This document shows, in pieces, positions 58,287-59,753 of a stretch of 64,000 bases of DNA; the first letter of the stretch is position 1, and each line of letters begins with the position of its first letter. This DNA comes from Candidatus Methanomethylicaceae archaeon. Lineage in GTDB: Archaea > Thermoproteota > Methanomethylicia > Methanomethylicales > Methanomethylicaceae. Location of the stretch: the NCBI GenBank assembly GCA_015660995.1, contig JACTUC010000002.1, forward strand, positions 43,480-107,479. The letters are read 5' to 3'. The translations under genes and the position numbers were made by a program. The notes beneath the pieces were generated by a model. It made no database searches, was not told the DNA's origin, and was given only the letters and a program-made list of their open reading frames with translations.

Positions 58287-58685
58287 CTATTCTTCAGTGT
58301 TCATTGCTTGTTGTTTGATGACTGAGGCTTTGTTCGGATTAGCATAGTACAAGAATGATTTTTTGCTACCAGTTCTTTCAATGATCCCCATTCTAATGAA
58401 TTCTCTTAAAAGAACAGGGTAGATGGAACTTGTGCGAAAGGTAAACCCTTTCTTTGCCAACTCTTTCCGTATTTCAGTTAAAGTCCTTTTATCATCAAAC
58501 CAACCATTAATAATCAATTCATTAAGTAGCATCTTAACGGTTTTTAGACCTTTCCGCTTCTTACTTTGCCCAATACCTAACCCAACTAGAATATTTTGAA
58601 CAGCTTCTTGCGAGCCATCTATTTCAACCATGCCAAATTTAGTGGGTATTCTGGCCGTAATGTTTTGACTCTCGTTTTCAACCAT
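58287..58685 (-). CDS. Winged-HTH protein with N-terminal beta domain
   Basis: GMVEIDGS N-terminus; GWFDDKRTLTEIRKEL...IYPVL...IER...YY C-terminus; ATG overlaps the protease stop. Confidence 0.7.
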   Translation of the reverse strand: MVENESQNITARIPTKFGMVEIDGSQEAVQNILVGLGIGQSKKRKGLKTVKMLLNELIINGWFDDKRTLTEIRKELAKKGFTFRTSSIYPVLLREFIRMGIIERTGSKKSFLYYANPNKASVIKQQAMNTEE

Positions 58686-59154
58686 TAATATCACCTTTAC
58701 ACTTAGTACATACTTGCATCTGCGAACACGGATTGGGACATCCTAAACAATATTTGAAAGTGCTTTGGCACAAGCGAAAAGACATTATGCAACCTTTTGT
58801 TTCGCAATGTTGAACTCCATTGAGGTGCAAAATTTCGTGAAGGCAAATATCGCTCCATCTTGTCAGGTTATCCTGGGAAAGAGACACTATCCCGATATTC
58901 CCACTTATGGCATCAACAATACCTTTGTAAGTTGCCAAATTTCCAAATGATTGATTGGGTTTAATTGTTTTTGAAGTGATCAACAATATTTTAGAGGCAA
59001 CTTCTTTGATGAGAGGAGCGAGATCTTTGGTGCCGATTGTCTTTTTATGTACATGGCATTTTCGAGAATTTATGACAATACCAAAATCTAAGGCTCGTAT
59101 CCGAAGTTCATTATAATTTAATGTTGGCAATCCCTCATCGTATAATACGAGCAT
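58678..59154 (-). CDS. Archaemetzincin-like (M54) zinc metalloprotease
   Basis: HEILHLNGVQHCETKGCIMS fits HExxHxxGxxHCx4CxM; extra Cys cluster ending CTKC. Confidence 0.8.
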   Translation of the reverse strand: MLVLYDEGLPTLNYNELRIRALDFGIVINSRKCHVHKKTIGTKDLAPLIKEVASKILLITSKTIKPNQSFGNLATYKGIVDAISGNIGIVSLSQDNLTRWSDICLHEILHLNGVQHCETKGCIMSFRLCQSTFKYCLGCPNPCSQMQVCTKCKGDING

Positions 59155-59327
59155 AAGATTGCTTTAGTTAAAGCAACCTTAAATTAGTTAATATTGAACC
59201 TTTTGCACCAAAAAAAGTCTATAGTCATAGTGAAATCTCATAGACTGTGTCTATGTGGGTAAGATTTATATGTGACCAAGTATATGATTACATATGTGTC
59301 ATACTGATTATCACAGGAGGTGACAAA

Positions 59328-59753
59328 ATGCCCATAAAGGTATCGATTCCTTTGCAAGGTGATGGACGAATAGAGGTAGAAGGCGAATTAGATTACATTA
59401 AAACGACCATCCCACATCTCAAAGCAATCATCGAAGAGTTAGGCGCAAATGTTGGCTTTAGTACATCAATTGTAAGTATCGGCGAATCAATTGATAATAC
59501 CAATGATAGCATACCACCAATTCCTGCATCCATGAAATCAAGCCCTACAGAAGTGATAACTTACTTATTCACCCAAACTGCTTGGGGAATGAAACCACGT
59601 ACACTGAATGACATAAAAGTGGCCCTAAGTTCTGAAGGCATTAACCGAGATTCCAAGACAATTTCATCATTACTGATTCAATTAGTGCAAGCAAGCAGAC
59701 TGCACAGAGTCAAAGACAAAACACTCAATGTGTACGTCTATAGTCGCTATTGA
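59328..59753 (+). CDS. Winged-HTH protein, paralogous layout to 58287..58685
   Basis: GRIEVEGE N-terminus; WGMKPRTLNDIK-x-x-L...G...I...L-x-x-LV...LHR...YVY; GGAGGTGA RBS before ATG 59328. Confidence 0.7.
   Translation: MPIKVSIPLQGDGRIEVEGELDYIKTTIPHLKAIIEELGANVGFSTSIVSIGESIDNTNDSIPPIPASMKSSPTEVITYLFTQTAWGMKPRTLNDIKVALSSEGINRDSKTISSLLIQLVQASRLHRVKDKTLNVYVYSRY

Follow-up and report, generated by a model that had tools for sequence, protein, structure and literature searches.

Pairs of a zinc protease of the HExxH type and a repressor are well known in bacteria (ImmA/ImmR of ICEBs1, IrrE/DdrO of Deinococcus and CapP/CapH of CBASS), where such pairs run the induction of mobile elements, the radiation response of Deinococcus and some defence systems. 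Here we analyze a stretch of 64,000 nucleotides from a Candidatus Methanomethylicaceae archaeon (contig JACTUC010000002.1, positions 43,480 to 107,479 of the forward strand; the whole stretch is called the window, and coordinates below are those of the window), in which three genes for soluble proteins form a cassette of 1.5 kb. On the minus strand lie the gene of a protease (58678–59154) and that of a winged helix–turn–helix (wHTH) protein, wHTH1 (58287–58685); the gene of a second such protein, wHTH2 (59328–59753), is on the plus strand, and a divergent control region of 173 bp (59155–59327) separates the two arms. As in the bacterial pairs, often found on mobile elements, the gene of a small cytoplasmic zinc protease lies beside that of a DNA-binding regulator, and the model of a protease that cuts a repressor is proposed here by analogy. 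The families are different. The proteases of the bacterial pairs belong to COG2856/M78 and their repressors are of the XRE type, whereas the predicted combination here is a metzincin with winged-helix proteins, and two paralogous regulators occupy the divergent arms. No match of the protease to the COG2856/M78 (ImmA/IrrE) families was found in Pfam or NCBIfam. A preliminary description of the stretch had already set the locus apart from the ImmA/IrrE type in both protease and repressor family, and this holds; the three genes and the motifs that it named are likewise all present, in the list of open reading frames (ORFs), where it had placed them.

The nearest relatives of the protease are the archaemetzincins (MEROPS M54), which include the AmzA proteins from Archaeoglobus fulgidus and from Methanopyrus kandleri (PDB 3zvs, 2x7m, 3lmc) and human AMZ1/2. 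Common to them and to the protease of the window are the motif HExxHxxGxxHC-x4-C-x-M with a distal CxxC, a single domain of about 160 residues without signal peptide, and a fold on which the predicted structure superposes. In the 158 residues of the protease, HEILHLNGVQHC is followed by ETKG-C-I-M (the Met-turn) and then by a Cys-rich tail with CTKC at its end. The consensus of archaemetzincins is given in a passage of PMC3427221 as HEXXHXXGXXHCX4CXMX17CXXC. Up to the Met, the protease matches it exactly (HEILHLNGVQHC-ETKG-C-I-M); the CxxC is present at another spacing from the Met (24 residues, or 14 in the P0014 clade, vs. 17 in the published consensus). In an alignment of 20 sequences, 21%–84% identical to the protease of the window, H106, E107, H110, G113, H116, C117, C122, M124, C149, and C152 are invariant, and the four cysteines C117, C122, C149, and C152 are predicted to form a second, Cys4 zinc site. 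The profile of the protease family, compared with the PDB, matches 3lmc best (9e-7), then 4axq and 3zvs (1.4e-5) and 2x7m (3e-5), together with adamalysins. The AlphaFold (AF2) model (pLDDT 86.7, pTM 0.86) has a metzincin fold, with TM-scores of 0.57–0.63 both to the archaemetzincins 3zvs and 3lmc and to adamalysins.

The curated families draw a narrower circle. Pfam M54 (PF07998) aligns residues 96–127 alone, the region of the motif, with 18.6 bits (E 2e-3) vs. a cut-off of 24.4, and NCBIfam "archmetzin" (NF033823) gives 21.8 bits vs. a cut-off of 145. Because both cut-offs are failed, strict membership of M54 does not hold; the wider claim of the preliminary description, an archaemetzincin-like protein, is borne out by motif, PDB profile matches, and predicted fold. 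The protease of the window also carries extra cysteines, and it is transposon-borne and fixed beside wHTH genes, whereas the housekeeping archaemetzincins have no described partner. Judged from its sequence and its model, it is a complete minimal cytoplasmic metzincin with the catalytic residues intact, nearest to the archaemetzincins and outside the curated family. Two distant homologues have other neighbors: P0017 (L104, 373–2230) is followed by an AbrB-like ORF of 49 residues and by an N6/N4 DNA methylase, and P0019 (L106, 624–3942) adjoins a protein of 490 residues and an AAA_16 ATPase of 425 residues with a C-terminal winged helix.

Protein wHTH1 (132 residues, MVENES...) starts at ATG 58685, the start favored by gene calls on identical metagenome contigs and by all homologues over the GTG 58694 of the ORF list. 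This start overlaps the stop of the protease gene by 8 nt (ATGGTTGA), and wHTH1 is translationally coupled to the protease. The start of wHTH2 (141 residues, MPIKVSIPL...) is ATG 59328, 5 nt 3′ of the Shine–Dalgarno sequence GGAGGTGA; a start at GTG 59247 was rejected. Each protein has two motifs, G-x-[IV]-E-x-[DE]-G toward the N terminus (G-M-V-E-I-D-G in wHTH1 and G-R-I-E-V-E-G in wHTH2) and RTL-x-x-I toward the C terminus (RTLTEI and RTLNDI, respectively). Their pairwise similarity is weak (23% identity, E 8e-4); profile-to-profile comparison with hhalign aligns them across both domains (probability 91%, E 1e-6). In the AF2 model of wHTH1 (pLDDT 79.6, built from 15 sequences), a β-hairpin and helix (residues 8–35) are followed by a basic, disordered linker (36–49, pLDDT <50) between the two folded modules, a canonical winged helix (50–115, pLDDT ∼90) and a C-terminal helix that is missing from shorter members of the family. 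The same two-domain plan is predicted for wHTH2, with a longer linker that contains an invariant I-P. The preliminary description had taken the two proteins for paralogues with a linker between domains. The hhalign comparison and the wHTH1 model agree with this and show the flexible linker to join a β-hairpin/helix module on the N-terminal side to a winged helix on the C-terminal side.

Foldseek matches of the wHTH1 winged helix include PadR, ArsR/SmtB, RosR, RTP, MecI, and viral F-93, with weak E-values and high probabilities; profile searches of the PDB with both wHTH families gave nothing significant. In the model, the domain is a generic transcription-factor fold without family assignment. 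The Pfam family BlaI/MecI/CopY (PF03965) stays below threshold for wHTH1 (E 0.009, 16.8 bits vs. a cut-off of 22.6). In BlaR1/BlaI and MecR1/MecI, a zinc protease inactivates a winged-helix repressor with a cut outside its DNA-binding domain, and MecI is among the structural matches of wHTH1. There is, however, no significant sequence relation; BlaR1 is a sensor in the membrane, its protease domain being an M56 gluzincin, and BlaI has the winged helix N-terminal and the dimerization domain C-terminal, the reverse of the order in wHTH1.

Conserved linkage of protease and wHTH genes had been set beforehand as the test of the cassette, and the linkage is kept in about nine independent metagenomic contexts, in which the identity of the protease goes from 54% down to ∼33%. 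The common layout, with wHTH2 on one strand and the protease followed by the overlapping wHTH1 on the other, is found in the window and at loci L001, L012, L015, L017, L018, L019, and L101–103; in L016, a stretch too short for more, the protease and wHTH1 are visible. The overlap between the protease and wHTH1 genes is 8–17 nt in every relative. The families are alike in size and tiny, with 18 representatives of the protease (full HMMER pass over 1.84 billion cluster representatives), 12 wHTH1 proteins, and 14 wHTH2 proteins, so that the cassette is very rare (each component has some 12–18 sequence clusters among billions of proteins). Between the window and L001, the identities are 54% for the protease, 52% for wHTH1, and 54% for wHTH2, vs. 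81% for the transposase of the carrier element; between the window and L017, they are 34%, 30%, and 27%, vs. 61%. Divergence runs in parallel in the three proteins of the trio and is more rapid than in the transposase. The three genes are one real cassette, inherited as a unit.

A profile search from 10 protease sequences found no locus in GTDB representative genomes or IMG/VR and two metagenome loci; one of the two (L014), a truncated fragment in a bacterial-looking context, was left out. With tblastn, the protease had no match in plasmid and phage collections, the PADLOC and PHROGs models gave nothing significant on the proteins of the element, and no description of the cassette was found in the literature. 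Together with the Pfam, NCBIfam, and PDB searches, this agrees with the earlier view that no described system matches.

In the control region of the window, the palindrome TTGCTTTA-AC-TAAAGCAA (59159–59176) lies between a TATA-like box and the ATG of the protease, and repeats of AGTCTAT/ATAGACT and GTCTATG (59216–59255) lie beside or flank the TATA-like box of wHTH2. These palindromes and repeats are confined to 59155–59327 and occur nowhere else in the element; the palindromes were looked for at the transposase promoter and at the element ends and were not found there. Across the cassettes, the divergent region measures 145–260 bp and each has its own short perfect palindromes. In eight control regions, the summed arm length of perfect palindromes is 62, vs. 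47.8 in shuffles, with 1 of 500 shuffles reaching 62, a result that is only suggestive with mononucleotide shuffles of AT-rich DNA. The palindromes are suggestive of autoregulation and give no support for a control of the transposase.

The carrier in the window is an intact IS6-type cargo transposon of 4,965 bp (56919–61883) with about nine passenger ORFs, situated between tRNA-Gln (56691–56764, minus strand) and tfb in a low-G+C block (56.6–62 kb; 38%–41% G+C vs. ∼52% around it). The outermost letters of its inverted ends (GGTTCTGT) are GGTTCTGTGTAGT, at 56919 on the left and, read on the minus strand, from 61883 on the right. The left terminal inverted repeat (56919–56970, plus strand, GGTTCTGTGTAGTCTTCGTTTG...) contains two copies of a TGTRTA..TCGKTTG sub-motif; the right one (61832–61883) reads GGTTCTGTGTAGTTCCCGTTTGG... 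on the minus strand. Identical 8-bp target-site duplications, AGATTTCG, occupy 56911–56918 and 61884–61891. The transposase (59779–60891, minus strand, 370 residues) consists of a SWIM zinc finger, a zinc ribbon, a helix–turn–helix, and an IS6-type DDE domain; it scores 58.6 bits with PF13610 (cut-off 27) and 123.8 bits with NF033587, just below the cut-off of 125. Divergent from it, an AbrB-like protein of 58 residues (61004–61180, plus strand) is the small regulator of the transposon itself, and the inverted repeat ATCTACCTA at 60896 and 60974, in the transposase/AbrB region, differs from the cassette palindromes.

Two further passengers stand outside the cassette, a DUF5678 protein (57455–57709, minus strand, 84 residues; PF18929, E 1.2e-6) and a retropepsin-like aspartic protease (56981–57448, minus strand, 155 residues, with DTGS; PF13975, E 1.2e-4). 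The DUF5678 gene is 6 nt upstream of the aspartic protease, a second protease-plus-small-partner pair on this transposon. The pair is found in the element of the window and at no other trio locus; not being co-conserved, it was ruled out as a target of the cassette, against the earlier proposal that the cassette controls the aspartic-protease module.

The hallmarks of IS6 (GG tips and the cTGTt motif among them; PMC7986276), together with the 8-bp target duplication, are present in the window, in L001, in L017, and in 50 of the 78 genome loci surveyed below. With IS6/IS26 and the "transporter IS" (ISDsp3), the carriers share the IS6-type DDE transposase, the GG...cTGT ends, and the 8-bp duplications. 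They differ in size and content (3–6 kb with one to several passengers, whereas a typical IS6 has ∼0.7–1.8 kb and the transposase only), in the SWIM domain of the transposase, and in the constant distance of 13 nt between insertion and TATA-like box. The review of the family gives a single passenger-carrying member, and zinc-finger extensions occur also in the clostridial clades h and i (PMC7986276). Aloposons, which have tRNA genes as integration sites and giant genes as cargo (PMC8813620), were rejected as the carrier type.

Other trio loci have similar carriers. In L001, perfect inverted repeats of 53 bp and a TAAAAAAA duplication surround an element of 5.4 kb with ParE inside, and L017 is a minimal element of 3,032 bp (CTTTATAG duplication) that contains only the transposase, a small ribbon–helix–helix (RHH) gene, and the trio. 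One IS6-type end is seen in each of L012, L018, and L101. In L019, the RHH gene and the trio lie beside an IS4/5-type transposase, without IS6 ends.

Relatives of the transposase in GTDB representative genomes number 177 (in Bathyarchaeia, Nitrososphaeria, Methanoperedens, and an Atabeyarchaeum), and 78 of their loci, with transposases 51%–67% identical, were surveyed. A pair of inverted repeats with a perfect or near-perfect 8-bp duplication was found in 50 of the 78 (elements of 2.2–6.2 kb), and all 49 delimited sibling elements hold one to several extra ORFs. The protease, wHTH1, and wHTH2 are absent from every one of the 78 loci, and relaxed hidden Markov model searches found no remote relatives of the trio among more than 200 sibling cargo ORFs. 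This cargo is diverse (126 of 147 clusters are singletons); Pfam matches on 113 cargo ORFs are mainly to methylases and specificity subunits of restriction–modification, GmrSD, HNH, KwaB, DUF3800, and three proteasome-like proteins. Many siblings have a small gene for a regulator (AbrB-like, RHH, or other) that diverges from the transposase gene: the AbrB-like gene of the window clusters with small genes of L023, L032, L054, and L065, and the RHH of the other trio loci occurs also in trio-less elements. The RHH gene was not retained as a part of the cassette, as it stands beside the transposase in trio-less elements too and the AbrB-like gene replaces it in the window. Since no sibling has the trio, the cargo is diverse, and a small regulator is common, the trio is one rare passenger among many on the IS6-type cargo transposons of uncultured archaea and not a core transposition function.

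For the mechanism, the reading that we favor, tentatively and by analogy with the bacterial pairs and BlaR1/BlaI (to none of which the cassette belongs), is that of a protease/wHTH unit that regulates itself and whose protease would cut the inter-domain linkers. Both wHTH1 and wHTH2 would bind 59155–59327 and autoregulate the two arms like a toggle of the CI/Cro type. The protease would dock on the N-terminal module shared by the wHTH proteins and cut the exposed linker of one or both of them; the cut would part the N-terminal module, probably dimerizing, from the DNA-binding domain and so flip or latch the state. The output might be the protease arm itself or transcription running out of the cassette. 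In favor of this reading are the kept layout with its overlapping genes, the similar divergence and family sizes of the three proteins, the invariant catalytic residues, Met-turn, and cysteines of the protease, the paralogy and linkers of the wHTH proteins and the repressor-like winged helix of wHTH1, the palindromes of the control regions, and the minimal element L017. A more specific form, a transposon-borne bistable toggle in which the archaemetzincin-like protease of one arm would irreversibly cut the winged-helix repressor of the opposite arm, we consider improbable. Several points weigh against the favored reading. In the L020–22 clade, the protease and wHTH1 occur alone, preceded by three direct repeats of ACTTTTTAAACA and without wHTH2, and a two-repressor toggle is therefore not universal. 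The trio loci have no conserved gene to serve as the output that a switch requires. The palindrome test is, as said, only suggestive, and none of the metatranscriptome runs holds the stretch. Lastly, the restriction–modification genes, GmrSD, KwaB, and ParE of sibling or related elements fit a role in defence or addiction at least as well. Beside the L020 pair lies an ORF of 289 residues that looks proteasome-like by eye; it has no Pfam match and the assignment is not claimed.

That role is the content of the rival that survives best, a toxin–antitoxin-like addiction or defence module, which is nearly as likely as the favored reading though in itself somewhat unlikely. The protease would then be an effector that cuts host or viral proteins; wHTH1 would be the antitoxin, its N-terminal module holding the protease inactive and its winged helix autorepressing the operon; and wHTH2 would be a third, regulatory component. 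The order of domains would be that of MqsA and HigA: in the toxin-first type II pairs MqsR/MqsA and HigB/HigA, too, the enzyme is encoded by the first of two overlapping genes, and the protein encoded by the second binds its partner with an N-terminal module and DNA with a C-terminal domain. The tight coupling of the protease and wHTH1 genes at all loci and the two-gene version in L020–22 suit such a module. So does L017, where the trio is the sole passenger and must function on its own, and so do the annotated cargo of the siblings (for the most part restriction–modification, GmrSD, HNH, and KwaB), the ParE of the L001 element, the rapid divergence of the trio relative to the transposase, the patchy and rare distribution of the trio, and the DNA methylase or AAA_16 ATPase that adjoins the distant protease homologues. 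The toxins of MqsR/MqsA and HigB/HigA, however, are RNases and not proteases, without sequence relation to the cassette; such pairs do not usually have a second, paralogous regulator in a divergent arm, no PADLOC or PHROGs model was matched, and to our knowledge no metzincin is the toxin of such a pair.

A control of transposition, as the preliminary description had also envisaged, is decidedly unlikely. The wHTH proteins would in that case act on the element itself, as repressors of the transposase or by binding at the two ends, and the protease would relieve this on a signal, as with ImmR/ImmA in ICEBs1. The position of the trio inside or at the end of IS6-type elements (complete in the window, L001, and L017, with one end seen in three others) speaks for it, as do the mere 78–129 bp that separate wHTH1 from the right end of the L001 and L017 elements and, in RHH-type elements, the tail-to-tail overlap of wHTH2 with the RHH gene, which is divergent from the transposase. 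The survey, however, speaks against it: none of the 78 siblings has the trio, though 50 of them are intact with target duplications, and the transposase already has a small regulator dedicated to it. The trio, furthermore, is paired in both orientations with two types of core, the AbrB type in the window and the RHH type elsewhere; in L019 it is beside a transposase of another type; and the cassette palindromes are missing from the transposase promoter and the ends. The earlier claim is weakened accordingly. Because the aspartic-protease module is not co-conserved and no other part of the element has the palindromes, the cassette looks self-contained and is not evidently a regulator of the transposase. 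For a stress switch, as in the preliminary description, or a sensing of ssDNA, the analysis gave no support.

Very unlikely, finally, is that the protein is no protease in vivo and serves the wHTH proteins as a zinc-binding scaffold or chaperone, or that the genes are mere neighbors kept by the small size of the element: the archaemetzincin of Archaeoglobus was crystallized and yet a passage of PMC3427221 describes the biological role of the family as hardly known, but the whole HExxHxxGxxH and the Met-turn are invariant in the 20 aligned sequences, the related archaemetzincin AMZ-tk is reported, in a passage of PMC4681839, to be proteolytically active, and coupling with parallel divergence over about nine contexts argues against chance adjacency.

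The insertion sites of the carrier family show a regularity. Very often, a TATA-like box is found exactly 5 nt past the 8-bp duplication on one side. In the window, caagc-TTTAATTA follows the right duplication, with the box at 61897, upstream of tfb; L023, L028, L046, L052, L071, and L076 are similar, and the arrangement is mirrored in L024–L026, L038, L062, and L068. Elements of this family may insert 13 nt upstream of promoters, as the spacing suggests. Junctions of the form end, 8 bp, end are present in the window (56896–56910) and in L012 (2528/2537), L018 (444/453 and 1177/1186), L051, and L082; outside the window, a single 8-bp target is common to two or three elements, a pile-up at the same site. 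In L012, a second IS6-type element (2537–3644), 8 bp past the trio element, carries a fusion of a DNA methylase and an Mrr-type nuclease (PF01555 + PF04471). In Nitrososphaeria, the target duplications recur as TGTTT[TG]A[GT] or the complement CxxAAACA (L062, L063, L068, L073, L077, L079, L082, L084, L087, and L089) and often adjoin the same ...GGTACGAGTACCTAATAAAGATAT flank, which suggests a preferred or repeatedly used target for these elements.

In the window itself, an older, inward-facing IS6-type end (GGTTCTGGCGACTT, minus strand; 56896–56910) abuts the target duplication. Within the element, a segment with a membrane-like ORF of 102 residues (57855–58259) has 14-bp direct repeats TTCGTCGGATTATG on both sides (57855 and 58246). 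In peat metagenomes, the part 58029–58217 exists as two alleles with 13 differences and similar depth, and one contig joins 58243 to the left end of the element (56923) via 20 other letters. The segment may be a small mobile insert or belong to a second variant of the element. Many metagenomes from peat and wetland contain the element; in the contigs of four peat metagenome runs it is in place, and no empty-site joint was found in them.

The carrier belongs to a large family of passenger-bearing IS6-type transposons, with a fixed distance to TATA-like boxes, in Bathyarchaeia, Nitrososphaeria, Methanoperedens, and Asgard archaea. A survey of thaumarchaeal mobile elements stated in 2019 that cargo-carrying DNA transposons were undetected in archaea (PMC6563490). 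Neither an archaeal counterpart of the bacterial protease and repressor pairs nor a version that combines a metzincin with winged-helix proteins was found described in the literature. No substrate is known for the archaemetzincins, conserved though they are all the way from archaea to humans, and a relative tied to two candidate substrates is a lead. The toggle, if true, would mean that a genetic switch run by a protease is described for the first time in archaea, and it would give the archaemetzincin lineage, from archaea to humans, its first physiological class of substrates, transcription factors.

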